Shown: positions 21,001-37,518 of the stretch, piece after piece
Position numbering within the stretch: the stretch's first letter is position 1
Layout: every line of letters starts with the position of its first letter
NCBI GenBank assembly: GCA_964449215.1
Contig: CAYVAH010000001.1
Coordinates: 32,865 to 96,864 of the forward strand
Source of the DNA: Candidatus Undinarchaeota archaeon
GTDB taxonomy: Archaea > SpSt-1190
DNA: 64,000 nt
Direction: 5' to 3'
Notes under the pieces: model-generated
Told to the model about the DNA's origin: nothing
What the model saw: only the letters and a program-made list of their open reading frames with translations
Databases searched by the model: none
Position numbers and translations under genes: made by a program

Positions 21001-24000
21001 CGGCACGTATCAAGACACAAAGGTCACACAACCAAATGGAGTGGCAACCTGGCAGTGGAACACCAACACTGAACCGCCCAGCTGGTTCAACATAAGCTGC
21101 CGCATAAATGACAGCTCCACCATGTTCTACAACACCTCGGTGGACACGGCATCGACAATGATCCGGATAAGGAGACCCTTGATATTCGAATACATAAGCA
21201 CTGTTCCGGGAACAATATACCGGAATGACTCTTATAACCCCCACGAAAGCAACATAAGTGTCAAGGTCGTAGAGGCACAGACAGGGCCAAGCGATGGTGC
21301 AAATGTAACATTCTACAACCAGACCTACTCACTCATAGACTACTGCATCACAAACTCTGACGGGAAGTGCTGGATACTTTACAATGCCACCAACACAATC
21401 ACCCCAGACATCTACAGGATATACCTGAATGCCACAAAGGATGGGACAGAGCCCTCTGTAACCAACTACACCTCCGTGAAGGTTATGGGTGTCCTGTATC
21501 TTAACATAACCAGCCCCGTGAACGGGAGTGAACACAACAAGGGAGAAACAATAGACCTGACAGTGGATGTGTGGGACGAAAACAACAACACCATAACTTC
21601 AGCAGATGCATACTGGTGGAATGAAACTGACATGGTGGGACAGGGGCTGTCAACCACTCTGAACCTGAAAACACAGCAGACGGGGTGGAGAAACATAAGC
21701 GTTGAGGTCAGAAAAGACTGCGCCAGCTATCCCGGAACGGAATGCTATGACAGGGCTTGGAACTATTCAATAATAAAAATAAACGGGCTCGCTGGGGTTA
21801 AGTGGGTATCCCCGCCAAGCTATGCGAACCCGCCGTGGTATGAGCTCACAATTTATGTCCCATACAACTTCACCTGCAATGTATATGATGAAATAACAGG
21901 CAATGGCATTTACAACTACACCACAAATGTCTGGTACCGATTCGGAACAGGACCATGGATCCACGCTGGAACCCTCCAGTCCAACATTGACGGGGACGTG
22001 AGCTACACATACGAGCCGAACCAAAAGGGAGACCTGACATTCAAGTGCAACATAACAGATGACCCGGACAAGCTGTATCAGGCAGGGGCGTCGGAAGCGA
22101 GTGCAACATTCAACGTTAAGGATAATGTGCTACCGACCATTGAGGATAATTACATCTACCCGACCTACGGGATTGAAGCTAACCTCAACCATACCACAAT
22201 CTACGCCACAATAAGTGACAATATAGGGATAAGTGCCACCTGGGTCTCTATAGAGCTGCCAAACGGGACATACTTCACGGACAGCATGGTAAGATACCCG
22301 GATGTCGTTGTTGACAAGAAAATCTCCGACCAGAACTCCACAGGATTCACCCACGTTGAGAATGCCAGTGAGCCTGGAGAAATGAAACATTTCAACGTGA
22401 CCATACACAACAATGAATCCTTCAATGTCTATTTCAACCTGACAATCAATGGAGAGCTTGTGTTCCCGAATGTGACAGCGAGCGCCGGAAGCAACACCAC
22501 CGTGGACGCCGTGGAGAATCACAGCTTTTCGCTTCCGGAGCCACTTGACGTGGAGGTCCAGTTCTTCAACGGAACAGGAGAACCAGTGAACGTGAGTCAT
22601 GTTGCATTCCTGGACTACCGGCTTAGCTCCTACAGATACAACTACAGTTATTACCCGGAAATCGGCGGAAACTACAATGTCACCATATATGCACAGGACC
22701 TGCCCCCTGAGAGCAATATACAGAGCAAGTTCACCGGCTCCTTCTATGTGTGGGGAACCACAAATGTAACAGCGAAAAACACGCCCAAGTTTGATGTTGC
22801 TGTGGGTATCACCCAGATCAATAGCTACACGTTCCAGCTGGTGGCAAACATAACCAACAATGGACCTGCAAACGCCTGGAATGTCAGCATGAACATAACG
22901 GACGATTCCTGGAACTACACGGAATACTGGAATGGCACCCACCAGCAAACGTATTTCTACTGCGGGAAGATTCCCGCAAACAAGTCGTGTGTAATCCCAA
23001 TAAACGTAACAATAAAGGAGAAAACCCCGCCTGTTGTCATCATTATAACCTCCAACGTCAGCTGGAGAAACCCGGACAAGAGCTGGAACTACACCTCGGA
23101 CACAACCGAGGTGGAAGTCGCCGACACGCCAGTAATAGAAATACTTGAAGATGAGCTGATCGCACAGGCACCACACGGTATGAGGAGCTATCTTGGCAAC
23201 CTAACAATAGCTTCCACGGGTAACTCGCCTGTGTTCGATCTGGAGGTCTTCCCGGTCGGTGGGAACCTGTTCTACGAGTGCCCCGAATGCAATTTAATAC
23301 TGTTCCCGGACTCCCAGGGGATAATGAATGCCGGAACGAATTACACGATGGACGTGGAACTCGACGTTCCGGGTGGCCAGACTCCCGGGGAATACTGGAC
23401 GGTAATCCGCGCAAACACTAGCAACGCCGCCTACGACGATGCATTATTGAATGTAACAATCCCGTGGAACAGTAGCTGGACCCGCTCGCCCTCTGGGCTC
23501 GGGACCATACTGGCACTGCTGAACACAAATGACACCATAGGGAATGTCACCATAAAGAACATAGGGAATGTCAGGGTGTATGTCACCACATACATAAGCG
23601 GTGCGGGAGCCACCCTCGTGACCGCGGAACCAAGGACCATGGGAATATCAAAGCTCACGTCGAGAAACCTCACAGTGAGTTACAGCATACCGCCGGATAT
23701 CTCGCAGGGACTTTTCCCCGTGCAACTAACACTAAGGGCAAAGGACGAAAAGGGAGACGATGCCGGACAGGAAACGGTCACATTCACTCTGAATGTCACG
23801 GACCTCCCACCAGCCATAGAAAACATCTATGTGGAACCACGGGACTTTGAAATATATCATGATGTTGTGAACATCTCCGCCACAATTACAGACAACTTTG
23901 AGGTCAGTCTGGCTTGGCTCAACATAACCCTTCCAAACGGCACATTTTACAGGAAATACATGAATAACACAGGGTCATTCTATTTCTCAGATTACAGCAC

Positions 24001-27000
24001 GAATATTACGGGCCTGTATATCCTCCGCATCTGTGCAAATGACAGCAGACAGCTGGAAGGATGCACAGCGCCCATAAACCTCACAGCCAACGCCAACACA
24101 AGCTTGAAGTTCCTGCCAAACAGGGAATTGGTAGTCGATAACGCCCGCTGGCTCGACCCCGTTAACTTTACACTCAATTACACCATAAAGAACGCCCGTT
24201 ACTCAAGAGCCTTCAACATAACTGCCAACTATTCAAGCCCCGATGGGTGGAACGTTTACCCACTGGGTGTGAACATCTCTCTGCTGTTGAAACAGGAGGA
24301 ATACAATGACACCCTGAACATTGAGGTACCGGCCGCCACCCTGCCAGGGAACTACAGCTTCAACGTCCTGCTCAACTGGACCAACCTCGATAACACCACC
24401 GGGTTGAACGACACGAACTTCACCATAGAAGTTCTTGAGAACCCACTCATAGAGTCCACTCCTGAAGAAATGAAGTTCACCATAATAAACAAGGAGTGGA
24501 AGAACAAGACGTTGTTTGTGGAGTCCGCAGGAAACGTTATTGTCAACGCTGTGAATGTTACTTGCTTCGGAGGAGTGGTATGCGAAAACATGAGCGTGAA
24601 CATCACCCCGAGCGTGCTTGGATCCATGCCACCGGGAACACTGGCACTTGTGGACATCAGAGTCCAGGTTCCGGAAATCTTTGAGACCGGACTGTATGAT
24701 GGCTACCTCTTCGTGAATGGCACGGAATCCAGCGACCTCACCCGCCTGTGGGTGAGGGTCCCACTCAACATTTCATGGGAGCACAACCCAACCAGCATTT
24801 ACAGGAAGCTTGTTCAAGGAGAAAGTGGAGAGTTCGGAGTTGTCACCATAAAGAACACAGGGAATGTTCTGACAAAACTGTGGCTCAATGTCACAGGGAA
24901 CATAACCGGTTACGTGTCCTTGAATGAAAGTTACCTCGAGATTCCAATCGAGGAGGAAAGATATGTGGCAATAAATTACAGCATGCCCCCAACATATGAC
25001 CAGCTCTATCTCAGCGGTGCCTTCATAAGTGAAAACAACAGCGCAAACATAACCCAACAGGCCACCTCGCTGGGGATGATGGTTCACCCGCTCTGGGTCA
25101 CCATAATTTCACCAACGCAGACCAGCCCAACAATAAATGTTAGCAACGGCACGACGATAAATGTAAACATAAGCGCCACCTATGGGTATTCGCTCATACA
25201 ATCCGGAATAACATTCAACGCATCACTCCACAGAAACGGAACATATTACGATGTGAATGAGAGCTACTACTACAATGACACGGATTTCCTCTGGCACCTG
25301 AACTTCACCGCACCGGACCTGAACCGGAGTACAGGCTACGACCTCGTGGTAACGGGCAACTATTCCCTCTATGATATTGCAAAGACGGACAGGGAAGACA
25401 AGGCAGTGATATACTATGATGTGATACCCCCGGTGGTTGACCTGAGACCGCCCGCGAAAGCGAGTGTCAACGGGACGGCCATGATAAGGCTGAACGCCAC
25501 AGATGCCGGTGGTGTGAAGGACGCCACCGCCACAATAACCTTCCCAGATGGGAACACTGTAAAGAGTTATGAAATGCATCTCGACTACATAGCTGGGGAC
25601 ACGTATGCGTTTTCACTGGCGTTCAACGAGACCTGGCAGGAAGGAATTTATGGGGTGTCCGCCAAAGCCTGTGACTATTCCGGGAACTGCGGATCCGACA
25701 CCGGTCAGTTCGCGACGTTCCAATACGCCAGGTTCTATGGCAGGACACTGGACCTCGAGAAGTCTGACGAGACTCCCATCAACCTGACATTCGACCTCTA
25801 TGAGGAAGGAACGATGAACCTGCTCCAGACAGTATATCCGAATGAAACTGGACATTACAACGAAACCATAGATGTGAGAACCTATGACATTGAAGCAGGC
25901 TTTTCGAATATGTCCTGCAAGTTCTACGGCGTTCCAATATTCACAGACGTTTATAACCCTGTCCAGATGGGCCGCATAAGTCCCAGCTTGATCGGGAAAG
26001 GCTCGCTGGTCGGGATGGAACTCGTCGAAAACCTGAGCTTCAGTTCCGCAAAAATAAAGTTCAGCTATGCGGGATATGAAGGAATAGATACCAGCAATCT
26101 GGCAGTATATACCTGCGAGGACTGGGTGAGGTTCAGTGGGTGTGCAAACAACAGCTGGGTCAGGAGCAACAGCACTGTGGTCGAACCCGGCACGGAAGAA
26201 GCCTACGTAATTGTAAGCGACCTTTCGGAAGCCTATGCCCTCGCAGAGTATGTTTGCGGGAACGATGTGTGCGAGACGCCCTATGGAGAAACGACTGCTG
26301 TGTGCCCGCAGGACTGCCCGGCAGGAGGGGCAGGAGCAGGGGGAGCAGCAGCAGGGGGTGGAGCCGGTGGGGGAGCAGCGGGAGGAGCAGCCGTCGCACC
26401 GGCTCCGACACCTACCATCCCGGCAGAAAAGTTCAAACCGGTACCTGTGGAGTTCAAGGCCCCTGTGATAGACATCACGATATACCCGGGTGAGTCAAAG
26501 GTCTTTGGAGTCGAAGTAACCAACAACATGGAAAATTCCACAACCGGGAGGACATATGCAGAGGGTCCTGTATGGACACTGCTGGAATTCCAGTTCGAAA
26601 ACTTCACCGTCGAGAACAAGTCAACAAGGACAGTGCAGATAAATGTTGTCCCAACTGCCAACGTGACTCCGGGTGTATATACAGGGGACATTGTCCTTGA
26701 AGTCGCGGGCATAAAGCACCGCATACCTGCTTCAGTAGCTGTGGAGATACTGGAAGAACCACTGCTCGACGTGAAGGTCAAAACACTCACAAAGAGGGTG
26801 GCACCCGGAGAGCCGTTGAAGTTTGAGGTCACCCTGATAAACATGGGTGGGACGGAGGAAATAGAGGACATAGTGGTCAACTACACGGTAATGACCCTCG
26901 AAGGGGAGGAAACCACAATAACAATAGCGGGAGAAACTGTAGCCGTTGAAAACCTGAACAGGTATGTCAGGGAGGTTACAATACCTGAAGATGTGCCTGA

Positions 27001-28387
27001 AGGGAGATATGTCGTTCAGGCAACCGCAAGCTACTGGTATGGCAGGAAATTCGCTCTGAGCACTGACAGCTTTGATGTTGTGATAGAACCGGCGCCCATA
27101 ACAGCAGTCAGAAGAATCTTTTCATCCTGGGTCACATGGGTGATATTCTTCATGCTGGCACCCATTGTATACTTCGCATACAGGTGGCTCTATCCATACT
27201 GGGTTAAGTGGAGGGAGAAGCAGAAATCCAAGCAGAGATACACCATGCCCATCGACATGGAAGAGCTTCCGAAAGAGGGACCGAGCTCCGTCAAGGTCGG
27301 GAAGCTTGCCGGGACGGATACTGATGCCTGGTTCGACCTCGATGACCTGATGACTCACGCCATAGTGGCGGGAGCCACAGGGTCCGGGAAGACCGTTTCG
27401 GCGATGGTGATAGCCGAGGAAGCACTGAAGAAGGGTAAGGCACTGGTGGTGTTCGACCCGACAGCCCAGTGGAGCGGCTTCCTTGCACCGGACAAAGACA
27501 AGAAGATGCTCAAGTTCTTCCCCAAGTTCGGGATGAAAGAAGAGGATGCGCGCTCATTCAAGGGGCTGATATTCGAAATAACTGACCCGGCACAGATATC
27601 CACAATAGACTTCAAAGAGTGGATAAGGCCCGGGGAAATAACGGTGTTCACACTCAACAAGCTCACAACCAGTCAGTTCGATGACGCCGTCAGGAATATC
27701 ATAACCACATTCTTCAACCAGGTCTGGGAGGAAAGTGCCGAGCTGAAAGTCCTGATTGTCTTCGACGAAGTTCACCGCCTGCTGGAGAAATACGGAGGTA
27801 AGGGTGGGTATGTTGCACTTGAAAAGGCTGCCAGGGAGTTCCGTAAGTGGGGCCTTGGAATGATGATGATATCGCAGGTCCTGAGCGACTTCAAGGAAGC
27901 TGTGAAGGGTAACGTGCTCACAGAGGTCCAGATGCACTCGAAGGGTCCGGACATAGAGCGTGTCAGGTCAAAGTATGGTGACGAATTCGCCGAGAGGCTG
28001 CTCCGCCAGGAAGTTGGTGTGGGCTTCGTCCAGAACCCGAAGTATAACAGGGGTAAACCCTGGTTCATAAACTTCCGCCCGCTTATCCACAGCCCGCACA
28101 AGCTACTTGAGGAGGAGCTCGACACTTATAAGCGGCTGGGAGCTATAATATGGGCAATCAGGGACAAGATAAAGGCCATGAAGGAGAAGGGCAAGGACAC
28201 AACAGACCTCGAGATGGAGCTCAAGCTCGCGGAGGACAAGCTCAAGACAGGAGCCTTCAGGATGGCCGAGATATATCTGGAAGGGCTGAGAAAGAGAGTG
28301 GGTGTCAAGGGAGAAAAACAGAAAAAAGAAAAACCAAAAAAAGGGACGGAAAAGAAGAAGAAAGCCAAAGGAGGTAAGAAGAAATGA
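2..28387 (+). CDS. Giant cell-surface repeat glycoprotein (>=9,461 aa in window, 5' end lies upstream of the window) with C-terminal TM helix and cytoplasmic HerA/FtsK-like (DUF87) P-loop ATPase domain
   Basis: Uninterrupted ORF of 28.3 kb. The frame is open from nt 2 with no upstream stop, and the first Met at 47 lies inside a repeat unit (NAF...GGWGE context), so the gene is truncated by the window. ~21 tandem ~320-aa units with conserved GGWGE, DxDxD, PDC..Y..G.Q.W, CYKD and YNCTW motifs. NxS/T sequons every ~10-15 aa. Ends with GA-rich linker, one TM helix, Walker A GATGSGKT and Walker B VLIVFDEVH, and a K-rich tail. Confidence 0.85.
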   Translation, partial: TTLNITEIRYTWKYGMLFNESQNAFTRLKIYEYVPLMENATLYINGNSSRTTGGWGENFTHSLWVRDRFGRNVSVYFWHRIVGNEWVLVDNSTCASCGSWTQMNFSYNYQPDDINTWEFKFNATNDDGNNSLEGFVYVVERDDVILNLNKPENYEIVNRSGSYTFSTRIYDTDNQTYPDGTIGKIFVSIFDQKNFEDSPPPLSASDGWLNRTVTNDDWCSNEGWYYLGNHSWYTATTGDQYIKDNSSAVRNFTLMGTLSNTITELIGENVSKEYNSTVIIEGNVTTDCGVTVTSPTAKFNLTNGQYYWECTGTPVGNTYQCNFPTSSAPYGWYNITMLSNQSLYWDGFAQQVASFYLASVPDVNASVDNLEAPWGKSPFNFTSYVTDQDNDTVTIRFWLKKGSGSWDNEHTDTKSNTSNYLTYYERTFTCPGPNDVGTWYFKVNATDTSGYWNETSIIQFNVTKEPIWVMHYLGDGKTINRSDNEPDTQTRLAVRLYDYILNTNRTDLLDSNVLFWVNGTSFVSTLNSSGKNYYHDYKPTCSFPAGNLSWKANFSGESCYADNSSVNFNIVVMGTLNGSLIVPDGNTNYSQGELFNITLNLTDDCNQTIGDADVWFNLTNTRTGDWYRCPSSGYAQFNGTYYLCEVNTSEFKGGWFDIYVNATRQYHWSYIKNYQNIYFQITPVTLSSPQHSAPGDGGWGENHSFSVIVDHYADVQVCLLEDLGSGWEITECKSIPQPTNQQVFFYRTYDCGPASSFVSYKFNASEPGVPSTLSNTTSQNHFIQKDDVQIVYIKGNESTVNRSSGYTPFILLINDTDKGEPAPYVQSYDSPRVRFFVHNGTTYLEDGSNVTNSSGYVEYRFNPSCSYERGRATWYGSTTLDACYKAENSGTYNVTILADIAPNITYPNGETFYRLASLVINITVEYKDECGLHYLNASANYTLISRGFGTHYNCTSIDDYENGTQICHFDASFADQGYYDVNITAWGVEYHNNATYRKNKTFNLIQLWKPPVLQNETVTPEQDGGWGENFTFSVNVSDENAEDVNVSLWLSPDNSTWEWIETQTCYDCGSITQLDFNYRDYDCSDKGTQYFKFNATDSHNSTDRTGLNFTVYADDVQFLYEGLSTGNDTTVNRWAGQLLKIRVYDPDNETYLPDSENTRFWVTTDGSSWGAPMDSQTDSSYTNVTFTPDCNYQVGPQLWKVGTFGNNCYKDTNSTLHLTTTITGYMSLTIDQPSGEMFFEGDNVTTRANITDECGSPTIADATVAFNVSHDSFSAQCKPVQNEGTGWYNCTWNVTGSPGGWYSVGMNASRQYYNNASTIKTNAFFHEIAPVLSGEYVTPNESHWGTEYTFKVNVTDEDDTVRVKLYHRKWPSTLWSEVETQYCSDCVNKTLTFKRTYTQTEIGTWEWKFTSTDDDLWFNTSVHNLTVNKRNVIVEYYRGNESNVTRYGDNSTLLTLVVKDAVSNSPIGQGLDGGFWVTTNGTSWGPKIPESTEEGSYLNHSFKPDCTYQTGKQKWKGGVDESTYYYAGNSSEYNVSIYSIINGTINIPNGTRMVRGSVLEIYGDVGDECPGLTKGATVKYRIYKGIEFIPSPDPANDLNNGTYNASWDTTGAALGWYNITMNISKEYHFDYYRKKVNAFYLGSGTELRNPWVDNSQDGWGYNYTFKVEVRDVENDVTNVSLWYSNSSSGPWKLIDWQEIQTTVFENVTFHHSFECQDYFDGPTTYYKFLANDSNGFMDETSPQTIILEQDDLGFIIESGSGASIDREGINPFTFIVSINDTDAGKLVGEGLNGSFYFTYDSTEFDAGHNTTTNATGQILYDHDPNCTYTTGVQLWYVSMHDNACYKDTDMGTSTYSVIGQLKNNIDIPIFGSEFNVTNRILIRFNVTSDCEEEGGINDTSSVEITPKHNGTGTEYSCSENNEGDGYYNCSWDSTGKPEGNYTIILQSSKGSYNSNTTILMNWFWLENLPTNYTRQWVSPSTGGWGEKFQFNVTVNDTEGDTVTCKLYVNTSDGFVYKGTDTITGTAGIDTVGNCSVEVNDFSCGEQGTAEFKWEITDGTASNPLNTTVTSGPTIEQDDTVTEYLLGNGSYVNRSGGVTELILRINDTDRGIYVQSNGTVWVYDGSYFPWSNRSNSTGHLKIEFTPDCSYSAGLWNWVGGAHGDDCYKDSNVSGYLVVNITGWMNTNVINPDGEKFLRGTNITIWANVSDECNNSVVGVALNFTMRSDQTGSLYYCAPIYDEGTGYYNCTFNTSGMDTQWYDIISNSSRQYFNPASDTKDNAFWVETAPFLFAPLVDPGVGGWGETFSPKVNVTDYDYDDLTVTCEKRKNGTSTWYSCGAQGKKGINQQAVFSTTFSSADIGNWTIRFNVTEDDGDIWNDTIETNFTLEKDDTEIHYVDGNESSVNRVSGIAQLKLKAVDTDNSGQQISSQPAAIWVTTDGSTWGSAWTTSTLTDGTISVDFNPGCEYDVGKQKWRGGLRLNDYWKMSNSSEFNVTITSEAKPYIIKPKSKIALRGVNDIELKGNLTDLGDCGLVSGGSLSFFVPSENYYECSATDLGNGNYSCTIPAATTGSWAYGWHNLTFNGTREYFAVYNDTVVDSFYLADDPELINPHVSQSSVPWGTQLNFDVTLIDLDPDNKTVYFWIKRPGQDWKLENSTLYVGATDGDGELIQFPFMTNCSDVGTDYFKFNVTDTSGYNDTTSGTDQFTIQEHGALLIIEGGAGDDVRREGDNFANLSVRVRDQTTAEYVGAGVNGSFWIPNKTENETIFVQTNGSGYFNYQFNPNCTHDIGTLNWKVGVVNDMCYVDVNTSSTVNVYGQLKNNLLLPAYDDSYNVMDPVPVRFNVSTDCPGEGLVENATTTVEMVSPGSGAFACTPVHNESGGWYNCTWDSTGMEEGYWDIRLNSSNEYFDDNSSTYGNWFWLENVPVTAENSTVWVMNWTVGGWESANLSERHGWTREFNFTINVNDTEGDNVTCRLWIKHNSTGEWSIAGSDAIQGTPGIPTQGECNVSYQGFSCADIGTNDFLWELQDGETANYWNTSIESLKLRESETNITISAGDGMQIDRNYETLPMTVFVFDKDNNEWTSGVNVSFWVSHDNLNPELDTVKKTSAGNATYWFSPDCSYTVGIQNWMAGVSDGCFQDVNTSQSTATIFGTQTHYLLSPDGEASLRGTNVTIRGNITDDCGNGLDDAYVNFTMTSDFTGEMFYCAPISNEGTGYYNCTFNTSGMPARWYDVTLNASRDYHHDGNESWDNSFFVSTEPILTTPKVNTSTYDGDDGPVGGYSEFFNFSVVVTDEDGDTVTADLWLRFWNKTTNSWNSWTHEGLKICADCNNTVLSYTKYNFLCENMGTWQYKWNATDQSDNPPGEGIEYSDEVSPNNFTVEEDDILIEYYAGSGGWIWRNGTETATLSTKVWDVDDQRYLSTGEASGTIWITRDGTNWDDGNLLSVLAGFFNFTFQPDCTNNYSVGLQNWISGTTGNSCFKNANSSTHNITLKTYMTGQKDYPDGDAYERGKLVNFSYYVEDECSVGITELTRTLKLKSGTTTYTITSGITDHGNGTYTYSWDSEGKVLGWYNTSFEVSKEHYVPLNISDSDVFYLGEPPELQLESVDKILGGWGESWHFQVQCRDLEGDTDMVYLWLKKNSTAQWELRSQQSCTSTSFLILDFYDNYTCDYITPQADNTLWKFNASDQWNFTDETPEHTITIEKDDVSIEHVSGHLGNVDREGFGTVTLAVRAYDPDKLEYLPAGRSGTVYVTTDGSSWDSGNTNSTDSSGNVYFIFNPNCSYGTGIQKWRGGIEGDSCYKDSFSPDFTLTVYGQLKIALDQPPEGSTYQTTEIVDIRLNVSTDCQDEGLLNDSTVNITLNSPLDDSESCTPVNNEGDGYYNCSWDTTLKMPGYWDIFTNASREYYHHNYTQYNDWIELKNSPTQYSDMNVTPQVSGWGDLYNYSVNISDPDFDSVNCTLYISTNGGSSYQSIDTMILPGGNGTCYFEKEYSCDDIGEDNYFYFVLKDGYNLVQTDTVQGPNITKDTLSIQHETGDGGEVNRSVNSLTLRVNVTDLDKETIADDNIVVYFNITTDGTNYILEDQDNTTQGKASIDFGPDCTYDVGNQKWFAYTENTTCYYPANTSEFNLTIIGKLQNTVILPNGTEHYIGEDNVTIRVNVTDDCGDLIDAEYINFSSINQDSSQKFYCSPIVHEGTGYYNCTFNTSGMPTRWYDVEVHSNLTFHTLSTATRTSAFWIETRPTISLVSVTSEQGGSVGGWGETWTYKVNITDLDKDEVKAYLWERPAGGEFHLISPSGKSKPAGIATQIVTFTYAGYSCTDLTTSANREWFVNGTDDPSGEIKDPANTSVGSFTLERNDILISLDQGNNSMLNRSNVTNGERAKLRVHIQDTDRGSSINTQDTAKFWVTTDGSSYALDKQTTTVEPGGYVSDNFPTANKCNYDIGPQKWKVDFGETCYKPTMSDEWNITLFTNPLMVTLYEPDGGTYRQSEDDINFTGMVSDDCGGVAGATVEFKAKQGPETKSCTSINDKGNGNYSCTIPASSTSTWILGFYNTTINASKQYYNSSDVLQIDDGLKLVTDPSIENMQVSTSDSNNPFGWGELWTFEVQLYDSDQDTYNFEKVNVSLNYYNGTKWVVLNTTICSAPDCATTSFIDFYRYFTCDNIGTDIPFSFTAEDYWGYKTTYNFTQTITKDDAEITITLQPSSVDREGGMETLQARVFDKDHFVYPGTGVNTSFEVTYDGSNFDTPVYKATDSGSYASYDFNPNCSYGVGQQTWKVSVLTDRCYSSSFLGSPSAFITVLGQLKNNLMEPENGSSFNILVDSVFLRLNISTDCQGEGLQENATTTIELISPYGQVYNCTPVKNETGGYYNCTWDTTGKAEGWWDVRLNSSKQNYNKNSTTYCDRFWLENSPPTTQNETIRVFNYSSGSWYNSLTGAWSALYNYSINVTDFEGDEINCSLWISKDNGTSWEMVGYDFHSATYGTTNNVYCSVVYQGFDCGDIDTPENGSWIPEKAKKFKWTIMDSTPGNTYNTSYRWGPNVTEARARIEHMEGNNSLFIRNQDTKPLVVNVFDLDKNASATSNVSFWVTTDASSFRLELTNRSGPDGNATYWFAPNCDHLVGPSYYYQKWKAMINDGCYLEKNTTEFQYRLVGFLSPQITATRNETLDARTIFLRGTNVTVNISVDDECSVNVDNVEMNVSLVSQYGNTFTCSPIDELGSGEYSCEQNTTGMPARWYNITASFTYQPWYLDANASKTSPMSGYGYGAFFIETKPILSLEKVNTSNYDGDDGPVGGYSELFNYTVRVTDEDGDQVKVQLWYSKWLDPGWGDWEKLLTTSTSSGGSGVNFATCTDCNNTLVWLAKDNYLCSEMSKYRFKINATDEIGSPGGYDSESNTYGYETSDHNYTVEEDDVEVLHSKGNGSTVWRNGTASTTLETYVFDIDDQSNLSVGEARGRLWMTKDHSNYEFISTLDLQGSPGETGYFTYDFYPDCTYDVGKQKWIVETAPMPGTTCYKFVNSSEFETTPRGFLNMTINLPDGEYVERYEDNVTVDFYVYDDCNQGKSGTVTQIRFIHPQETYIIYDASITDHGNGTYTYVWDPDVGGAKIGQYNISIDSDYENYYDPYYENTTGFKEKAFWIQTRPSLWSPTVFSVDDGGWGETWTYQVYCRDEDYDNISLLLWKKKDSSSEWVLIDTKYCQYSGIDGTIISFQNNYFTCDDVTPEGEQTLWKINTTDPWNFNQSTGDQTQTIHKDDVSVFPYYPTKTEISREGPDNTTFKFSISDTDRGNAPVGANISSVAWVTSNIASESGDWTVVSLNKTVSDSSVTFLFNPNCSHNASYLLWKGGTFNDSCYKDANFSTSFYSSKSKIHVIGQLKNFINHPPNGSKFFVGELINFTFNVTDECYSNWGPIENATVNFSIILPGIQQDNYTQDDLTYVGNGLYNFSWNTYFHKGGYWDIEVFTNKTHYYANTTYFDNYLYLNNTPPLVENFSVTPAVEGWGRTFTYSADIYDSQKDNVTCKLFVTTDGGSNWEYKGEQVIYWGNGTCEINVTDFDCSDRGTDNYYRFQIDDGTEGNLRNTTDIYGPNITEDDVGVYYAYGNATNVSRKGTNYTSLSFLVTDLDRGNITVSDANGTFWITRNGVTYVTQPVVQTNSSGYVVYQFNPDCDPLYETMVQKWKAGVVDGCYVDTNLTDTYELTVMGDLTNNLDYIYKNSIPTAPPVNLTKGEEDLIADIHVTDDCGLDISSASVNISWISEYGNRYNCTVSDSGNGIYKCNMPTDAMKARWYDIEINSSKQPYYYDSLNTLQQNVLFLETRPIVTNLTCLNCPGGWGETFYFATTLTDEDLDNLTLKLFVRKPGTGFFYEMNSTNVTAPIINKTVVLSVPDTTFECPTHLGTGEFRFESQDDRKLTQSNTTNYTVERDDVRFEVSEGDGDFVWRNGTGALNLSLVVWDDDRNTTISGIQGTVWVTVNQSSWDSGKGIGTNGSGYLNYEFMNELPPGGQRCDYELGPQWWRGWVNDSCYKDTYSQNYSLTIRAELLPVIHIPDGEGYLLGDHILVAGTVSDDCPPPVENATVTYKLKRGSNTYTCSPTNSYNWTENLGWYNCTWDAGSRVKGWYDIEMQTSKAYYADNSTTKVQAFFLGEAPTLENPQVDHDYGGWGEEYVFQVIFSDPDYHSNNVSLWVSSDNVTWWLKDWKSAIGVDTTVQFFERFTCDDISSFPDGVKYWKVRAVDPFNYSDETQPKNITFIRDDVTVTPQATSNSSIRRMGTGEAYLEFRIYDTDLGVYPNESSTRVWITENFTNYSVVKSCNSTNGYCNVSWDPTCTAEAGVQNWVAGTMDKCYQQVNSTPTDLEVIGQLYLQPNQPEYHEIVNRNTTTEMNTSVTDECGNYVENATVIWYNEIWDQIASGYYANWSIAAGYELGSETINVNATKTHYDEGTNSTVVYVYGWSSITDISPESGSEFDAGNSIVVDCTVKDANIGSPIPGYSVDFFKNGTYQDTKVTQPNGVATWQWNTNTEPPSWFNISCRINDSSTMFYNTSVDTASTMIRIRRPLIFEYISTVPGTIYRNDSYNPHESNISVKVVEAQTGPSDGANVTFYNQTYSLIDYCITNSDGKCWILYNATNTITPDIYRIYLNATKDGTEPSVTNYTSVKVMGVLYLNITSPVNGSEHNKGETIDLTVDVWDENNNTITSADAYWWNETDMVGQGLSTTLNLKTQQTGWRNISVEVRKDCASYPGTECYDRAWNYSIIKINGLAGVKWVSPPSYANPPWYELTIYVPYNFTCNVYDEITGNGIYNYTTNVWYRFGTGPWIHAGTLQSNIDGDVSYTYEPNQKGDLTFKCNITDDPDKLYQAGASEASATFNVKDNVLPTIEDNYIYPTYGIEANLNHTTIYATISDNIGISATWVSIELPNGTYFTDSMVRYPDVVVDKKISDQNSTGFTHVENASEPGEMKHFNVTIHNNESFNVYFNLTINGELVFPNVTASAGSNTTVDAVENHSFSLPEPLDVEVQFFNGTGEPVNVSHVAFLDYRLSSYRYNYSYYPEIGGNYNVTIYAQDLPPESNIQSKFTGSFYVWGTTNVTAKNTPKFDVAVGITQINSYTFQLVANITNNGPANAWNVSMNITDDSWNYTEYWNGTHQQTYFYCGKIPANKSCVIPINVTIKEKTPPVVIIITSNVSWRNPDKSWNYTSDTTEVEVADTPVIEILEDELIAQAPHGMRSYLGNLTIASTGNSPVFDLEVFPVGGNLFYECPECNLILFPDSQGIMNAGTNYTMDVELDVPGGQTPGEYWTVIRANTSNAAYDDALLNVTIPWNSSWTRSPSGLGTILALLNTNDTIGNVTIKNIGNVRVYVTTYISGAGATLVTAEPRTMGISKLTSRNLTVSYSIPPDISQGLFPVQLTLRAKDEKGDDAGQETVTFTLNVTDLPPAIENIYVEPRDFEIYHDVVNISATITDNFEVSLAWLNITLPNGTFYRKYMNNTGSFYFSDYSTNITGLYILRICANDSRQLEGCTAPINLTANANTSLKFLPNRELVVDNARWLDPVNFTLNYTIKNARYSRAFNITANYSSPDGWNVYPLGVNISLLLKQEEYNDTLNIEVPAATLPGNYSFNVLLNWTNLDNTTGLNDTNFTIEVLENPLIESTPEEMKFTIINKEWKNKTLFVESAGNVIVNAVNVTCFGGVVCENMSVNITPSVLGSMPPGTLALVDIRVQVPEIFETGLYDGYLFVNGTESSDLTRLWVRVPLNISWEHNPTSIYRKLVQGESGEFGVVTIKNTGNVLTKLWLNVTGNITGYVSLNESYLEIPIEEERYVAINYSMPPTYDQLYLSGAFISENNSANITQQATSLGMMVHPLWVTIISPTQTSPTINVSNGTTINVNISATYGYSLIQSGITFNASLHRNGTYYDVNESYYYNDTDFLWHLNFTAPDLNRSTGYDLVVTGNYSLYDIAKTDREDKAVIYYDVIPPVVDLRPPAKASVNGTAMIRLNATDAGGVKDATATITFPDGNTVKSYEMHLDYIAGDTYAFSLAFNETWQEGIYGVSAKACDYSGNCGSDTGQFATFQYARFYGRTLDLEKSDETPINLTFDLYEEGTMNLLQTVYPNETGHYNETIDVRTYDIEAGFSNMSCKFYGVPIFTDVYNPVQMGRISPSLIGKGSLVGMELVENLSFSSAKIKFSYAGYEGIDTSNLAVYTCEDWVRFSGCANNSWVRSNSTVVEPGTEEAYVIVSDLSEAYALAEYVCGNDVCETPYGETTAVCPQDCPAGGAGAGGAAAGGGAGGGAAGGAAVAPAPTPTIPAEKFKPVPVEFKAPVIDITIYPGESKVFGVEVTNNMENSTTGRTYAEGPVWTLLEFQFENFTVENKSTRTVQINVVPTANVTPGVYTGDIVLEVAGIKHRIPASVAVEILEEPLLDVKVKTLTKRVAPGEPLKFEVTLINMGGTEEIEDIVVNYTVMTLEGEETTITIAGETVAVENLNRYVREVTIPEDVPEGRYVVQATASYWYGRKFALSTDSFDVVIEPAPITAVRRIFSSWVTWVIFFMLAPIVYFAYRWLYPYWVKWREKQKSKQRYTMPIDMEELPKEGPSSVKVGKLAGTDTDAWFDLDDLMTHAIVAGATGSGKTVSAMVIAEEALKKGKALVVFDPTAQWSGFLAPDKDKKMLKFFPKFGMKEEDARSFKGLIFEITDPAQISTIDFKEWIRPGEITVFTLNKLTTSQFDDAVRNIITTFFNQVWEESAELKVLIVFDEVHRLLEKYGGKGGYVALEKAAREFRKWGLGMMMISQVLSDFKEAVKGNVLTEVQMHSKGPDIERVRSKYGDEFAERLLRQEVGVGFVQNPKYNRGKPWFINFRPLIHSPHKLLEEELDTYKRLGAIIWAIRDKIKAMKEKGKDTTDLEMELKLAEDKLKTGAFRMAEIYLEGLRKRVGVKGEKQKKEKPKKGTEKKKKAKGGKKK
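47..20250 (+). repeat. Intragenic tandem array of ~21 divergent ~0.96-1.0 kb coding repeats (tri-domain Ig-like/beta-sandwich units) of the giant protein
   Basis: GGWGE-type motif recurs at nt ~161, ~1115 (degenerate), 2091, 3070, 4030, 4975, 5945, 6898, 7858, 8830, 9845, 10845, 11820, 12785, 13805, 14825, 15895, 16980, 18010, 19000, 19990. Each unit then contains DDV..Y..GN.S.VNR.G, F.PDC.Y..G.Q.W..G..CYKD.N and GQLKNN..D.C..EG.GYYNCTW..G..WYD motifs. Units are divergent, not identical at DNA level. Confidence 0.7.
26321..26420 (+). other. Gly/Ala-rich low-complexity linker of giant protein (AGGAGAGGAAAGGGAGGGAAGGAAVAPAPTPT) encoded by purine/GC-rich tract
   Basis: Read directly: gcaggaggggcaggagcagggggagcagcagcagggggtggagccggtgggggagcagcgggaggagcagcc. 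Confidence 0.8.
27115..27190 (+). other. Single predicted transmembrane helix of giant protein (IFSSWVTWVIFFMLAPIVYFAYRWL)
   Basis: ~24 hydrophobic residues followed by a positively charged stretch (YWVKWREKQKSKQR), consistent with extracellular N-side and cytoplasmic C-side. Confidence 0.65.
27215..28320 (+). other. HerA/FtsK-superfamily (DUF87-like) P-loop ATPase domain, C-terminal cytoplasmic portion of giant protein, followed by Lys-rich tail
   Basis: Walker A HAIVAGATGSGKT (nt ~27368-27393) and Walker B KVLIVFDEVHRLL (nt ~27749-27775). The downstream EFRKWGLGMMMISQVLSDF...VLTEVQMH matches the arginine-finger/sensor region typical of HerA/VirB4/DUF87 ATPases. Tail is KQKKEKPKKGTEKKKKAKGGKKK. 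Confidence 0.7.
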
Positions 28388-29085
28388 AATGTCTGGTGGC
28401 GATGATGCTCCTGGCCGGAACATTCGCCCTCAGCTTCAGTTATGATGGCGAAGTTTTCGTGACCCCCGGTGAGGAAAGAGTGGTGAAGATATACCTGCAG
28501 AGCGAAAATGAAAGTGGAGTTTACCCTGTCACCTGCTCCTCAAGTATTTCTGTGAAATGTCCGAACTACGTGAGGATAAACCCGGGATCGGAAACCTTCG
28601 TTGCCCTGGAGCTCACAGCGGGAATCGGGCGGCATCTGGTGAATGTCTCGATAGGAGGGAGACCAATACGGTTTGTCGTTGAGTCTTCGAACCACACAGA
28701 TGTGTTTTACAATATGCTCCAGAGATACAACAACAGTTTTTTCAGGCTCGAAGCAAGGTATGGAAAGAGTGAACTCCTTGACCTGGGGAAGCTCCTGGTT
28801 TCGGAGGGGTTCTCCCACTACAAAAAAGGGGAATATCCTGCAGTCAAAGGAATTCTGGAAAATCTCGAGACGCTGCTCGGTGAATATTATGCCTCCATTG
28901 GAACCGTGGAGGAACAGCCAGCCAGACTTGAGCTGTCTTTCATTCCCCTCCTCCTAGTTGGAGGAATGCTCGGGGCTTACACCATTGCAACAAGGAAGCC
29001 GAAGAGAAACTCCGGGGCAGGGGAACTGAGCAAACTTATGGAAAAGGAGTTTGGAGGTGGAGTTGTTGGCAAAAAAGAAGACTAA
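28384..29085 (+). CDS. Small secreted/membrane-anchored protein (N-terminal signal peptide, C-terminal TM anchor), translationally coupled to the giant gene
   Basis: ATGA start/stop overlap with the giant ORF. N-terminus MKCLVAMMLLAGTFALS is signal-peptide-like. C-terminal LSFIPLLLVGGMLGAYTIATRKPKR is a TM plus stop-transfer. No recognisable family. Confidence 0.6.
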   Translation: MKCLVAMMLLAGTFALSFSYDGEVFVTPGEERVVKIYLQSENESGVYPVTCSSSISVKCPNYVRINPGSETFVALELTAGIGRHLVNVSIGGRPIRFVVESSNHTDVFYNMLQRYNNSFFRLEARYGKSELLDLGKLLVSEGFSHYKKGEYPAVKGILENLETLLGEYYASIGTVEEQPARLELSFIPLLLVGGMLGAYTIATRKPKRNSGAGELSKLMEKEFGGGVVGKKED

Positions 29086-30229
29086 GCCGAAGAAAGTCAA
29101 AAAGGAGGAAGAAAAGCCCGCGGAAGAGGCCCCAGAAGAAGAAGGCGGGGAACCGGCAGCAGAGGAAGGAGAAAGAACAATAGGAGATATTGTTGAGGAG
29201 GAGGGGCTTGTTTCCGAACCTGAAAGGGAGTCAATGCTCAAGCAGCAGGGGACACCTGAGCTCTCTGAAGTTCTGATGCGCATTGACAGAATTGACGGGA
29301 AGCTGGAGCTCTTCAAAGGGATGCTCGATTCCTTCAACGAAAGACTCATAGAACTCAATGAACGCCTCGGGGACACCCGCAGGATGGTCTTCGACAGGGA
29401 AAAATGGGCCTCAAAGCTCGAAACGGAGTTCGAGAAAGTGGCAGGCATTGTGAAGGAACTTGACCCGGAGAAAATCGTAATGAGGTTCGAGAAGTTCAAG
29501 ACAAGCATTGAAAAACAGAATGCAACCCTGGAAAAGCTCAACGACCTCCTGAAGAACCTATCGGAGCGGATGAAGATTGCGGAGGGGAAACTCGAGAACG
29601 TTAAGAGCCTCGAAAACGTGATGAAGGCCGGAAAGACCGTTGAGGAGAAATTGAAGAAGATTCAGGAAGCGAAGACATATACGGACAAAATATCCGCGAA
29701 GATAGAGGCGATGTTCCTCGAAACGAATGAAAGGGTCGCCATGATGAAGGAAAACCTTGATAAGATTGAAAAGCATGAGTCGATGCTGGGCGACCTGCTG
29801 AAGGAAATTGAATCACTGAAGTTCAAGATAGATGAAGAGCTCGTGAAAAAGAGGGAGGTTGAGGAACTTATTGAGTCCGCAAAAGACGTAATCATAGAAG
29901 AAATCGTTGGGATAAACCCAGTTGCTTTTGACAACCTTCGAAGGAGGGTCGCGATATTGGAGAACAAGGGAAAAAGCACCAGAGAGCTCGAAGAGGAGCT
30001 GAAGAAATACCAGACACTTATGGATCAGGTTGAAAGGGATTTCCAGATGGGGCGGATAAAGGACGAAGCCAGGAACGAGCTGAAGGCCAGCACGGAGAAA
30101 AAGATAGAAGAAATCCGGCTGGTCCTTGAGAGCAGAAAGGGTCCAAAAAAGGTTGAGGGGAAGAAAGCAAAGGGAAAGGAAACCAAGTTGAAGGAAAAAC
30201 TTCTGAGCATGGGAAAGAAATCTACTTGA
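29051..30229 (+). CDS. K/E-rich cytoplasmic coiled-coil protein (start uncertain: TTG/GTG at 29051-29066; first ATG at 29234)
   Basis: Long ORF with heptad-like K/E/L-rich sequence throughout and no TM. Overlaps the previous gene across an A-run (ggcaaaaaagaag). SD-like GGAGGTGG at 29053-29060. Confidence 0.55.
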   Translation: MEVELLAKKKTKPKKVKKEEEKPAEEAPEEEGGEPAAEEGERTIGDIVEEEGLVSEPERESMLKQQGTPELSEVLMRIDRIDGKLELFKGMLDSFNERLIELNERLGDTRRMVFDREKWASKLETEFEKVAGIVKELDPEKIVMRFEKFKTSIEKQNATLEKLNDLLKNLSERMKIAEGKLENVKSLENVMKAGKTVEEKLKKIQEAKTYTDKISAKIEAMFLETNERVAMMKENLDKIEKHESMLGDLLKEIESLKFKIDEELVKKREVEELIESAKDVIIEEIVGINPVAFDNLRRRVAILENKGKSTRELEEELKKYQTLMDQVERDFQMGRIKDEARNELKASTEKKIEEIRLVLESRKGPKKVEGKKAKGKETKLKEKLLSMGKKST

Positions 30230-33200
30230 AAACCCTCTTCAGTTCCTCGAAGGTCTCGCGGGATATCAGCCCCTCTTCATATTGGCTCTTCAGTGTTTGA
30301 AGAACGTCAGATCCCCCTTCTGCTTCCCTTTTCTTCTTCACTATTTCCTCGAGCTTCTTCATCGCCCTCCTCTGCTCCCTCCCTTTCAGTATCTTGAACT
30401 TGTTTATGGCTATCACAATCAGGAGAATCAGAGCAAATATGGAAACGGCAATCACATACCAGTTCGGTGGAACCTCCGGGAGCGTGACTGTCGGCAGATA
30501 CCTCGGTTTTGAAATCTCCAGCCGGTATTTTATCTCCTCGATGGTGTTCTCCACATCAGATATCGTCTTGATTGCATCAACAGTCTGGTCCTTCTCGAGG
30601 TAGGTTTCAGCCACATCGAGCATTTCCCTGGATTTCCTGAGGAGGGAAAGAATCTTGGTAACATCACCCCCCCTCGCAGCAACCTTACCCGCCTGGTCCT
30701 CCAGATCCATAAGCTCCTCCCGGAGGGAAGCAATCCTCGCCCGGAGAGCCTCCTCCTGTGTCTTAAACACTATAACCTTGTAGAACTCCGAAACCTCCAC
30801 TTCACGGGAAATTATACGCATCTTGGTCACGTAGGTTCGGGCCGTGGCGTCCTCAGGGATCGTGAACTTCACGACAAGGTATCCACTTGACCCGGGAGAG
30901 AGGGATGCCACCTCCCTGACAACCTCGAACCAGTCCTTGTCTATGTCCTCAAAGAAAACTGTTATGTCGGAAAGGCCAACATCCCCTGTGTTCTTCACCT
31001 CGATGGTGAGATAACCCACCGAACCGCGGTTTATTATCATCTCATCCGGGAAGACGTTGGTTATTGTGAGCTCCATCACAGCAGCCTCAACCGGTGTTAT
31101 AATCTCAGGGGGGACCTCCTCCGGCGCAGCAGCTTCCACCACCCTGAAACCCCTCGAAACCTCAAGCGGGGGGTACACTGTCGAGTAGTTCAGAAGGACG
31201 TGGAGCGAGTAGCCCCCCGCTGACTGGTTGGAGTATATGGAAAGATTTGCAGTTAACGTGCGGTTGCCCCTGGCAGGAACGAATGTCGGCCTGTCATGGA
31301 CATAGGCATAAGTTCGATTCTGTGAATCCTCAATCCAGTATGAGAGAAGAACATCCTGGTCAACATCCCCGTAGTTCTCGAGCAGTATGGTGAAATTCAG
31401 GTCCTCACCCTGTGGCACCTCTGGGTCTATGCTGATTATATCAACGTCATAGGGTCCGCCAAAACTGACGCGGAAAGCCTTGAGCTTCCTCACCTGCCTC
31501 CCCCCTTGCTCAACTATAAGCTCCGCCAGATAGTATCCGGTGGTCGTTGGGAGGCTGTGCTTCGTCTGGTAGAGCCTGCTATTGTTCGTGACGTTGAAAA
31601 GCGAAAGCGAGCTGTTCGTGAAATAAAGATTCTCGGCCGAGTCATACACGTTCAGCGTGACTTCGTCCGGTTCCACCATAGGACCATCAGTATAGACGAG
31701 AGCGTAAAAGTGTGCCTGTATCGGCTGGCTTGAGTACCACACATATCCTACATCAAACTCAACATTATATTCCTCCCTGACGGAGAAGGAATACGTGGTG
31801 CTGTGATTAACTGTCTTGTTCGCCACCGGGTCCCGGTGCGAGGCATTCACAGTTATGGTGTAGTTGCCCAAGGGAGCATCATCGGGAATTGAAAATGTTG
31901 GTATCGGCAGCACCGTTCCATCGGACTGGAGCTCGTCGTGATATCGCAGGTATCCGAGCGAGTCGTTGAGCTTTAGAGAAACATTTGCAGGTATGGGAAT
32001 CCCGGACTCATCAGTGGTGTTTATGTATATGGATGCCGTTTCTCCCGTGTAGTATGTCCGGAAACCCGTTCCCACACTCGTGTGGAGTATTGGATAAACA
32101 TACAAGGTCAGGTTCTGACGGGAATAAAGCCCAAGGTTGTCTCTCGTCTCAACCTGCAAGGTGTAGTAACCGAACTCGTTGCTGTTCCCCCAGGTCCCGG
32201 GGTATGTGAGCTCGTAGTAGTAAGTCTCATTTGATTGATTCACGAGGTTCATGTCAGATGCCTGCACCGAGCCCCGGGGAAGAAACACAACGAGTCTGGT
32301 GAAGCTCAACCCCTGCCCGGATTTATCAGTGATATTCGCATAAACCGTTATGTCTTCAAGCTCCTGCGTAATATTCTTTGACAGTGTGGCATTTATCTCG
32401 GCAAGCTCTCTTGGTATCATACTCACGTTCAAATATCTCCAGGAGGGCTGTGCGACGCCAGCACTCACATTGTATGTGGCATTATAATAGTCCCTCGCGA
32501 CTCCGGTGAGATTCCAGAGTATGACAAAGAGGTGCACGCCCTGCGCTGGAACGGTGAAGTTGGTCTCATTGGTGTATGTATAGTTGGCGCTTTCCGGGGA
32601 AACGGTGAAGTTCAGTTCCACGTTACCCGTGTTGTTGACCATAACGTCGCACATCTTCCCCTCATCGAAAGCTACCTCGGTTGTGCAGTTCTCCGGGTGG
32701 AGCTCCCAGGTCCGGGAAACGGGAACTGTAATATTCAGGTACACAAAATCGTAACCATCATCGGAGCTTGTGTAATTGGCAGTTCCGGTATAATTGCCGG
32801 GGGAATAGCCGGGGGAGACATTCACATTCGCAGTCACATCAATCACAGAGCCAACAGGAATGAAGTCTATCTCGGGATAAAACGTTATGTTGAAATCATC
32901 CAGCCCAAGCACCGTTACACTCACCCCATTCACCTGGTCATTACCGGTGTTCCTGACGGTGAAGCCACCGATATCCGTGCTCTGACCGTGTGGCGCCGAA
33001 CCGGCCACATACGCTTCGTCTATCTGAAACTCCTTGTTCGAAAGAACTTCCACAGTGATGTTCGTGGTGTTGTATGTCACCCCTATTCCGGGATTCGCCC
33101 AAGAAACATTGACAACAACAGTGTAGTTCCCGGGCGTGCTCCGCTTCACAGCAAGCTCAAATGTCCTGAAACAGAACCCACCCACCGGCACGTCACCGCA

Positions 33201-37229: not shown

Positions 37230-37331
37230 GCCCCGGTAGCTTAGCGGCAGAGCGCCTGGCTGTTACCCCGTTTCGGGTCACGGAGCGGGACAGAAACCAG
37301 GCGGTCGCAGGTTCGAATCCTGCCCGGGGCG
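37230..37331 (+). tRNA. tRNA-Asn (anticodon GTT) with a 30-nt intron at the canonical 37/38 position (37266-37295)
   Basis: Hand-folded. Acceptor GCCCCGG/CCGGGGC, D-stem GCTT/GAGC, anticodon stem CCTGG/CCAGG, loop CU-GTT-A, intron ccccgtttcgggtcacggagcgggacagaa, T-arm GCAGG-TTCGAAT-CCTGC, discriminator G, no encoded CCA. Confidence 0.75.
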
Positions 37332-37517: not shown

Positions 37518-37518
37518 T

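Follow-up and report, generated by a model that had tools for sequence, protein, structure and literature searches.

Overlapping genes behind a giant archaeal surface-protein gene meet at ordinary, conserved operon junctions

Do the two close-set genes downstream of a giant surface-protein gene in a Candidatus Undinarchaeota archaeon simply follow it as an operon, or could a run of A residues where their reading frames overlap fuse their products? In the stretch analyzed here (the window, 64,000 nucleotides), the giant open reading frame encodes at least 9,446 amino acids, a lower bound since its 5' end lies beyond the window edge; the surface protein reaches 14,690 amino acids in another assembly and ends in a cytoplasmic HerA/FtsK-like ATPase. 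The next gene (28384-29085) encodes a 233-residue type-I membrane protein with a signal-like hydrophobic segment at its N-terminus and a C-terminal transmembrane helix (about residues 183-203) with RKPKR after it. The third encodes a coiled-coil protein. We compared this arrangement across nine related lineages drawn from the Altiarchaeota, the Undinarchaeota and unclassified archaeal MAGs, with counts for the first junction taken from eight of them and those for the second from all nine. Both overlaps are real and conserved.

At the first junction, the overlap between the giant gene's stop and the next start described in the first-pass annotation is present in the sequence: the TGA at 28385-28387 and the ATG at 28384-28386 share the 4-nt ATGA, and a GGAGGT (28370-28375) lies 8 nt upstream of that ATG. 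The form [A/G]TGA is kept in seven of the eight lineages, and translational coupling and partnership of these genes are therefore plausible, in a quite ordinary form, as this is the textbook coupling overlap. The tight coupling that had been proposed is also in keeping with the second junction, where, in all nine lineages, the upstream gene carries a Shine-Dalgarno motif and the start codon of the coiled-coil gene within its final codons. The 4-nt ATGA overlap is the commonest type of prokaryotic gene junction (PMC10666635).

The second overlap was likewise found as annotated, and its extent depends on where the coiled-coil gene begins. Its frame is open from 29030 and offers TTG at 29051, GTG at 29057 and TTG at 29063 and 29066, after which the next in-frame start is the ATG at 29234, so that the earlier remark that no ATG precedes this position holds. 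TTG/GTG codons at 29051-29066 had been put forward as possible starts preceded by a sequence motif. A non-ATG start behind such a motif, GGAGGTG (29053-29059), does stand, but the motif precedes only TTG 29063 and TTG 29066: TTG 29051 lies upstream of it, save for its last G, which the two share, and GTG 29057 lies inside it. Homology identifies TTG 29066 as the start, so the coiled-coil gene overlaps the 233-residue gene by 20 nt; the TAA stop of the latter is at 29083-29085. The aligned codon is TTG in three other lineages and a clear ATG in five, a GGAGG(T)-type Shine-Dalgarno motif stands 5-11 nt upstream of it in 9/9, the second codon is Ala in 7/9, and the Lys-rich N-terminus of the coiled-coil protein is common to all.

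The first-pass annotation had further suggested that a +1 or -1 slip on the A-run (A6, 29071-29076) would fuse the membrane protein to the coiled coil. Relative to the 233-residue gene, the coiled-coil ORF lies in the +1 frame. The two would be joined only if ribosomes slipped by +1 (or -2) or if the mRNA had lost one A or gained two; a -1 slip leads into the third frame, where a stop codon lies at 29181-29183. The run itself is not conserved, several lineages lacking either it or the overlap: the longest A-run within the overlap is 2 in L011, L012, L014 and L016, and L013 and L017 have a 1-nt gap in place of an overlap, the junction otherwise reaching up to 26 nt of overlap. Nor is A6 unusual in the window (53 observed against 66 ± 10.5 expected); what rises above chance is the conservation, with tight junctions and Shine-Dalgarno motifs recurring in eight to nine diverged lineages. 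No fusion of transmembrane and coiled-coil parts was found among about 165 family members, no RNA structure downstream of the A-run, and no indel at the junction in eleven independent assemblies of two lineages. These observations, together with the ATG starts, argue against a frameshift fusion.

As read from the sequences, then, both overlaps are ordinary operon junctions led by ribosome-binding sites and would yield three separate proteins. That these proteins are partners, as had been presumed, draws support from a gene order conserved in every locus compared and from remote coiled-coil homologues, which also sit downstream of giant HerA-tailed genes. The cassette of giant surface protein and partner genes is conserved, and this context is of more interest than the overlaps themselves.

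The three co-directional genes that end at position 30229 are best explained by two ordinary operon-internal junctions in an archaeal gene cluster, giving three separate polypeptides, a reading to which we assign a probability of just under nine in ten. The 5'-most is the 3' part of a giant gene (2..28387, forward strand), whose frame is open from the first base and closes with the TGA at 28385-28387. The giant protein has at least 9,446 aa within the window, a lower bound since its ORF is open from the window's first base and leaves it at the 5' end. Gene calls give it 14,690 aa on an ENA contig from this lineage and 13,237 aa in the sister lineage, so that it ranks with the largest genes of Archaea, a domain in which proteins exceeding 10,000 aa are reported to be scarce (bioRxiv 10.1101/2023.11.21.568195). 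It is followed by the gene for a 233-aa type-I membrane protein (28384..29085, forward strand; stop TAA 29083-29085) and by that for a 387-aa cytoplasmic coiled-coil protein (29066..30229, forward strand; stop TGA 30227-30229).

At the first junction, the ATG of the membrane-protein gene (28384-28386) and the TGA of the giant gene share the forward-strand sequence ATGA (28384..28387) in a 4-nt overlap, which confirms the earlier observation that the giant gene's stop overlaps the next start. The giant gene's 3' end contains an SD-like GGAGGT (28370..28375, forward strand), placed 8 nt ahead of that ATG. The stop/start is ATGA or GTGA in seven of eight lineages (ATGA in the window, L011, L012, L014 and L017; GTGA in L005 and L016; the L numbers are our handles for homologous loci), the sole exception being L013, where a 10-nt spacer contains AGGAG. 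A purine-rich SD-like motif is found 5-10 nt upstream of this start in 6/8 lineages, L012 having only AGGT; there is no such motif in L011, and in L017 a GGAG stands merely 1 nt before the start. In favour of ATG 28384 as the start, every encoded N-terminus begins with M-(K/R/G) and continues into a hydrophobic stretch.

Judged by its shared ATGA and the conservation of this arrangement in orthologous loci, the junction belongs to the -4 class. No other class comes close to this one in frequency among 2.66 million unidirectional gene pairs (PMC10666635), and experiments showed coupling for 13 of the 14 Haloferax and E. coli pairs that were tested (PMC6728339). The first junction matches exactly the ATGA/GTGA termination-reinitiation systems of Huber et al. 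(2019, PMC6728339; 2023, PMC10666635), with which it shares co-directional genes, the ATGA itself, an SD-like motif in the upstream end, cross-lineage conservation and, as a likely rationale, subunit stoichiometry. A ribosome terminating at the TGA would reinitiate at once on ATG 28384, and such coupling would tie synthesis of the membrane protein roughly 1:1 to completed translation of the giant ORF. Unlike in those systems, the upstream ORF is at least 28 kb long here (44 kb in another assembly), so that the predicted coupling would gate partner synthesis on a very long translation event.

The second junction is of a different build. The frame of the coiled-coil gene is open from 29030, the preceding stop ending at 29029, and its in-frame starts are TTG 29051, GTG 29057, TTG 29063 and TTG 29066, followed by ATG 29234. 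The first-pass annotation had noted the lack of an in-frame ATG before 29234, which the ORF listing confirms, and had suggested a TTG or GTG start at 29051-29066 behind GGAGGTG, which is borne out, homology now fixing it at TTG 29066 (29066..29068, forward strand). TTG is a weak start codon. This one is followed by GCA (Ala) and Lys codons, and GGAGGTG (29053..29059, forward strand), which is read as Gly-Gly in the frame of the upstream gene, lies 6 nt before it; both elements fall within the last 11 codons of the 233-aa gene. Independent gene callers also place the start at the 29066 position. With this SD and a position conserved in all nine lineages compared, we predict SD-led initiation at a non-ATG codon, giving an N-terminus that would read (M)AKKKTKPKK. 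That the SD pairs with the 16S rRNA is an assumption based on the general archaeal anti-SD, since the organism's own 16S 3' end lies outside the window.

GGAGGTG has only 15 occurrences in 128 kb (both strands), and SD matches of 7-8 nt were found upstream of only 3 of 28 window ORF starts examined, two of them being the junctions described here. The exact motif is also present on the reverse strand at 47901-47907, near the gene for the PheRS beta subunit, and at 57105-57111, near the 56648-57094 gene, in both cases just upstream of likely internal-operon starts. These further motifs are consistent with an organism that uses strong SDs at operon-internal genes. For the 46357-48003 gene, the true start probably lies downstream of the one listed from the longest ORF.

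We aligned the second junction on the start codon in nine lineages, namely the window and eight further lineages for which loci were fetched (L005 and L011-L017); the coiled-coil protein has about 15 close relatives. At the position homologous to 29066, the window, L005, L011 and L016 have TTG, and L012, L013, L014, L015 and L017 have ATG. An SD-like motif lies 5-11 nt upstream of it in every lineage: GGAGGTG at 6 nt in the window, AGGTG at 6 nt in L005, GGAGG at 9 nt in L011 and L016 and at 6 nt in L017, GGAGGT at 7 nt in L012 and L015, GGGGGT at 11 nt in L013, and GGAGGTGA at 5 nt in L014. The second codon specifies Ala (GCN) in 7/9 lineages, with Val in L012 and Thr in L016, and all nine N-termini are Lys-rich, with M-A-(K/x)-K conserved. 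Because start codon, SD and Lys-rich N-terminus recur in the aligned lineages, we take the codon homologous to 29066 to be the start.

It is improbable that the coiled-coil gene starts elsewhere, either at TTG 29051, GTG 29057 or TTG 29063, with a longer overlap, or at ATG 29234, with none. All of these codons are in frame past the stop ending at 29029, AAAAGGAG (29042-29049) could serve GTG 29057, and ATG 29234 has the canonical start codon in its favour; however, the codon aligned with 29066 is the sole position with a start codon in all nine lineages, and L011 offers no alternative to its aligned TTG before an ATG 186 nt downstream. TTG 29051 and GTG 29057 overlap or sit inside the SD and TTG 29063 is just 3 nt from it, GGAGGTG standing ahead of TTG 29063 and TTG 29066 only. 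Initiation at ATG 29234 would leave a 148-nt untranslated spacer, and the stretch 29066-29233 is open, Lys/Glu-rich and closes with a strongly conserved peptide in every homologue. Since this peptide, GERTIGDIVEEEGLV.EPERESM (in the coiled-coil homologues TIGDIVEEEGLV(S/T)EP(E/D)RESM), lies upstream of 29234, that ATG is excluded as the start.

With the start at TTG 29066, the two genes overlap by 20 nt (29066..29085, forward strand), the coiled-coil frame being +1 relative to that of the 233-aa gene. The length of the junction drifts across lineages while SD and start are kept, from a 1-nt gap (L013, L017) through overlaps of 8 nt (L012), 14 nt (L011, L016), 17 nt (L014, L015) and 20 nt (the window) to one of 26 nt (L005), and the relative frame is +1 in 9/9. 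The junction sequences do not differ among five independent assemblies of the window's lineage, nor among six of the sister lineage, which rules out sequencing or assembly errors as the source of the frames. The second junction fits the longer out-of-frame same-strand overlaps that carry an SD in the upstream 3' end. The C-terminal residues of the membrane protein are variable (EFGGGVVGKKED, EFGGQNNG, ...GGDQNGQGE), and they are largely the SD/start region read in the other frame, the EFGG... residues corresponding to the SD. Inside the overlap, an A6 run (29071..29076, forward strand) is read as AAA-AAA (Lys) in the upstream frame and as GC(A AAA AA)G in the downstream one. The longest A-run in the overlap has 6 nt in the window, 5 in L005, 4 in L015 and 2 in L011, L012, L014 and L016, and there is none in L013 or L017. 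The A6 run is a by-product of Lys-rich termini and no conserved element: it is there only because both proteins are Lys-rich at this point.

This bears directly on the proposal, made in the first-pass annotation, that a +1/-1 slip on the A-run fuses the TM-anchored protein to the coiled coil. The comparison of homologous loci leaves it unsupported: the A-run is not conserved, two lineages lack the overlap, five have an ATG start and no fused homologue was found. Loci without the A-run or the overlap, and with a clear ATG, are what that annotation had itself named as refuting the idea. A -1 slip fails in any case, since the coiled-coil gene lies in the +1 frame of the 233-aa gene; it would enter the third frame, which stops at 29181-29183. 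The other direction would require a programmed +1 ribosomal frameshift at AAA-AAA-G (29071-29077), at which a P-site tRNA-Lys re-pairs from AAA to AAG and some ribosomes make a membrane-anchored fusion of about 610 aa, with ...EFGGGVVGKKKTKPKK... (GGGVVGKK followed by KTKPKK) as the expected junction-spanning peptide. We consider this very unlikely. The geometry allows it, the coiled-coil frame being +1 and open from 29030 and the re-pairing being possible at 29074-29077, and the fusion would be topologically sensible because the post-TM tail (RKPKR) and the coiled coil are both predicted to be cytoplasmic. The +1 relation is kept in all nine lineages as well, but such constancy is what inheritance predicts, since stops and starts move only in steps of 3.

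Against a +1 frameshift stand the homologues themselves, which mostly lack the A-run in the overlap and two of which (L013, L017) have no overlap, and the downstream ORF, which has its own conserved SD and start codon in 9/9 lineages. For a -1 shift the heptamer is out of frame; for a +1 shift the A6 run lacks a canonical context, its A-site codon being GAA, neither hungry nor a stop. No stimulatory element, whether downstream structure or a spaced SD, was found: prfB-like SD spacing is absent, and folding of 29077-29160 yields a z-score of +0.98, a stability matched by 172 of 200 shuffles. None of the nine loci is a single, fused ORF, and of about 165 fetched members of the coiled-coil family none has a TM-like segment, while the membrane-protein controls have one. 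Overall, the shift site is not conserved, downstream initiation signals are present and fused homologues are lacking. We give an equally slim chance to a reading in which +1 slips at a low level, confined to the window's lineage, tether the coiled coil to the membrane.

Just one archaeal programmed frameshift is documented, a -1 event in fucA1 (PMC8211752). The fucA1 gene of Saccharolobus solfataricus shares overlapping ORFs and an A-rich stretch in the overlap with the second junction (PMC1616953, PMC8211752). It differs in its in-frame X-XXY-YYZ heptamer and -1 ORF relation, in a putative downstream stem-loop, in having full-length single-ORF homologues and in lacking an independent downstream start (PMC8211752), none of which applies at the second junction.

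An even less credible source of a fusion is transcriptional slippage on the A6 run, which would give A5 or A8 mRNAs encoding it. There is a homopolymeric A-run inside the overlap, but appreciable transcriptional slippage is known from runs of about 8-9 nt or more, a length that six A's do not reach. The run is not conserved across lineages, it is invariant in the five independent assemblies, and A6 runs are no commoner in the window than expected by chance (53 observed against 66 +/- 10.5 expected); a long, conserved homopolymer was thus not found here.

Homopolymers are sparse in the giant gene too. Its first 28.3 kb (window 1-28321) contain no AAAAAA or TTTTTT, and all homopolymers of 5-6 nt in the gene are under the codon-shuffle expectation, with 3 A6 runs observed against 7.7 expected from codon-order shuffles (p about 0.09) and 23 G5 runs against 40 (p about 0.01). 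We rejected homopolymer depletion as a finding, as it is not significant individually (A6 p about 0.09); the low count may be a sign that runs prone to slippage are weakly selected against in so long an ORF.

Having set fusion aside, we return to the three separate products and to how their translation may be linked. Of the tight translational coupling claimed in the first-pass annotation, the tight junctions are conserved (stop/start overlap in 7/8 lineages at the first, SD and start in 9/9 at the second), and on these grounds coupled translation is plausible. The two junctions may differ in this respect. Huber et al. regard the range from -8 to +10 as predictive of termination-reinitiation, and overlaps of more than 8 nt are rare in H. 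volcanii (PMC10666635). The 20-nt overlap lies outside the range shown to couple by reinitiation, so coupling at the second junction may be weaker or of another kind. Initiation there would be led by the SD at TTG 29066; it may be independent and SD-driven, or may even be hindered by ribosomes finishing the upstream ORF. The start regions of both junctions are weakly structured, so unmasking of a hairpin would not be needed at the second. A scan of 27800-30600 for bacterial-type promoters and terminators was uninformative.

The 233-aa protein begins with a signal-like segment; an Ig-like beta-sandwich (about residues 23-101), which has two invariant cysteines, and a helical bundle follow, and then a TM helix at about residues 183-203 (nt 28930-28992), RKPKR and a predicted cytoplasmic tail of roughly 30 aa. 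Its AlphaFold2 model has a mean pLDDT of 60, with 80-89 in the beta domain; it has no match in Pfam or NCBIfam, and few relatives are detectable. The coiled-coil protein opens with a Lys-rich N-terminus and an acidic linker, followed by the conserved motif TIGDIVEEEGLV-EP-RESM; long helices then occupy about 290 aa, and the C-terminus, again Lys-rich, has a KLKEKL motif. Its AlphaFold2 model (pLDDT 66.6) shows nothing but long helices, for which Foldseek against the PDB returned generic helical hairpins only (e.g. ribosomal L29; E >= 0.1); a profile search of PDB sequences gave nothing under E 0.2, and Pfam and NCBIfam gave nothing meaningful. Matches of the two small proteins to Mce4_CUP1 and to SMC coiled coils were dismissed as sub-threshold noise.

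The coiled-coil family comprises 682 cluster representatives (E <= 1e-3) among 1.84 billion searched by profile, and corresponds to no Pfam or NCBIfam family. Several homologues were considered as candidate fusions and rejected: P0015 (635 aa) is a coiled-coil protein with longer Lys/Glu-rich tails, and the N-terminal extensions of P0041, P0042, P0047, P0078 and others are soluble.

In the giant protein, a huge extracellular part leads to a C-terminal TM segment, beyond which lie a cytoplasmic ATPase and a tail rich in Lys. Pfam matches in the extracellular part are confined to a few hits to Ig-like, MG2 and NPCBM_assoc domains. The cytoplasmic C-terminal part, encoded at 27290..27769 (forward strand), matches Pfam DUF87 with 38.6 bits (cut-off 23.2) and HerA (4d2i) with E 1e-8, the Walker A motif GATGSGKT and the Walker-B-like LIVFDEVH being aligned; from these matches it is predicted to be a P-loop ATPase of the HerA/FtsK superfamily. 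It is not assignable to any specific equivalog such as HerA, CedD or VirB4, since its top NCBIfam matches (CedD, HerA, TraD and VirB4) all score far under their cut-offs. It thus shares with HerA, the CedD/CedB DNA-transfer ATPases, VirB4 and TraD a DUF87/HerA match over the Pfam cut-off and the Walker motifs, and differs from them in that it forms one chain with an extracellular protein exceeding 9,000 aa, from which a TM segment separates it. The fusion of a DNA/protein-translocase-superfamily ATPase to a giant surface protein is unusual. The same ending, a TM segment, a cytoplasmic HerA/FtsK/CedD/VirB4-like ATPase and a conserved helix (...KTGAFRMAEIYLEGL...), was seen in giant proteins of close and remote lineages alike (the window, L011, L014 and the remote loci L020 and L022).

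A fourth conserved member of the cassette is the convergent gene for a 1,893-aa surface protein (30222..35903, reverse strand) with NPCBM_assoc/CARDB-like domains. Its C-terminus has a weak SHOCT match (18.2 bits, under the Pfam cut-off of 27); the L005 homologue shows a TM segment in its C-terminal part. The stop of the convergent gene (30222-30224, reverse strand) and that of the coiled-coil gene (30227-30229, forward strand) lie in an 8-nt 3' overlap (30222-30229), which leaves no room for a terminator between the two; in L005 the corresponding genes abut with zero gap. The order of giant gene (+), gene for a membrane protein of 234-287 aa (+), coiled-coil gene (+) and convergent gene for about 1,900 aa (-) is found in every locus long enough, and in L005 synteny with the window extends to the gene for CysRS.

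These loci come from Altiarchaeota MAGs (L011, L012, L015), Undinarchaeota (L014, L019), an unclassified archaeon (L013) and metagenome contigs (L016, L017). The closest relative, L005 (GCA_007050885.1), carries the submitter label Candidatus Bathyarchaeota, which stands out among cassette loci otherwise labelled Altiarchaeota, Undinarchaeota or 'archaeon' and may reflect mis-binning or misclassification. The window itself is archaeal, since it holds an intron-containing tRNA and encodes a class-I CysRS and an archaeal-type PheRS beta subunit. The tRNA in question is a 102-nt match (37230-37331, forward strand; Rfam, 60.3 bits, with no ARAGORN call) that is presumably an intron-containing archaeal tRNA; it adjoins a tRNA-Ser gene at 37436-37518.

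Remote members of the coiled-coil family extend this association. P0018 and P0020 (26% identity) are encoded directly downstream of giant genes, the former in L020 (1-9407; GCA_017880035.1) 194 nt from an 11,238-aa gene and the latter in L022 (1-9815) 68 nt from a gene of at least 2,846 aa, and both giant genes end in a DUF87/HerA-like domain. In both loci an AT-rich spacer with no membrane-protein gene precedes the coiled-coil gene, which has an ATG start and probably its own promoter. Spacers of 68-194 nt imply that strict coupling is not a family-wide requirement, and these loci show that the coiled-coil family as such is characterized neither by the overlap nor by fusion to a membrane protein. 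They strengthen instead the functional link of the family with HerA-tailed giant proteins.

The three products had also been presumed to be stoichiometric partners. The conserved gene order speaks for this, and a physical partnership is plausible because pairs with short overlaps are 4.5-8.1-fold enriched for subunits of heteromeric complexes (PMC10666635); in H. volcanii, 45% of such pairs encode them (PMC10666635). We infer that the three proteins, probably together with the 1,893-aa protein, would form one envelope-associated complex. A broader and more tentative reading, which we hold to be possible though somewhat less than an even bet, is that the junctions belong to an undescribed conserved archaeal envelope module, in which the -4 overlap would provide completion-gated stoichiometry. 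Its parts would be a giant surface protein of about 10,000-15,000 aa, TM-anchored to its own HerA/FtsK-like ATPase, a small type-I membrane protein, a cytoplasmic coiled coil and a surface protein of about 1,900 aa. Our literature searches found no description of a cassette of giant, membrane-protein, coiled-coil and convergent genes.

The junctions themselves matter little, as stop/start overlaps and SD-led internal starts are routine in prokaryotic operons. What they do provide is a corrected annotation, with TTG 29066 as the start of the coiled-coil gene and with separate products, and the conserved set of partners that they join offers an experimental handle on the roles of giant proteins.
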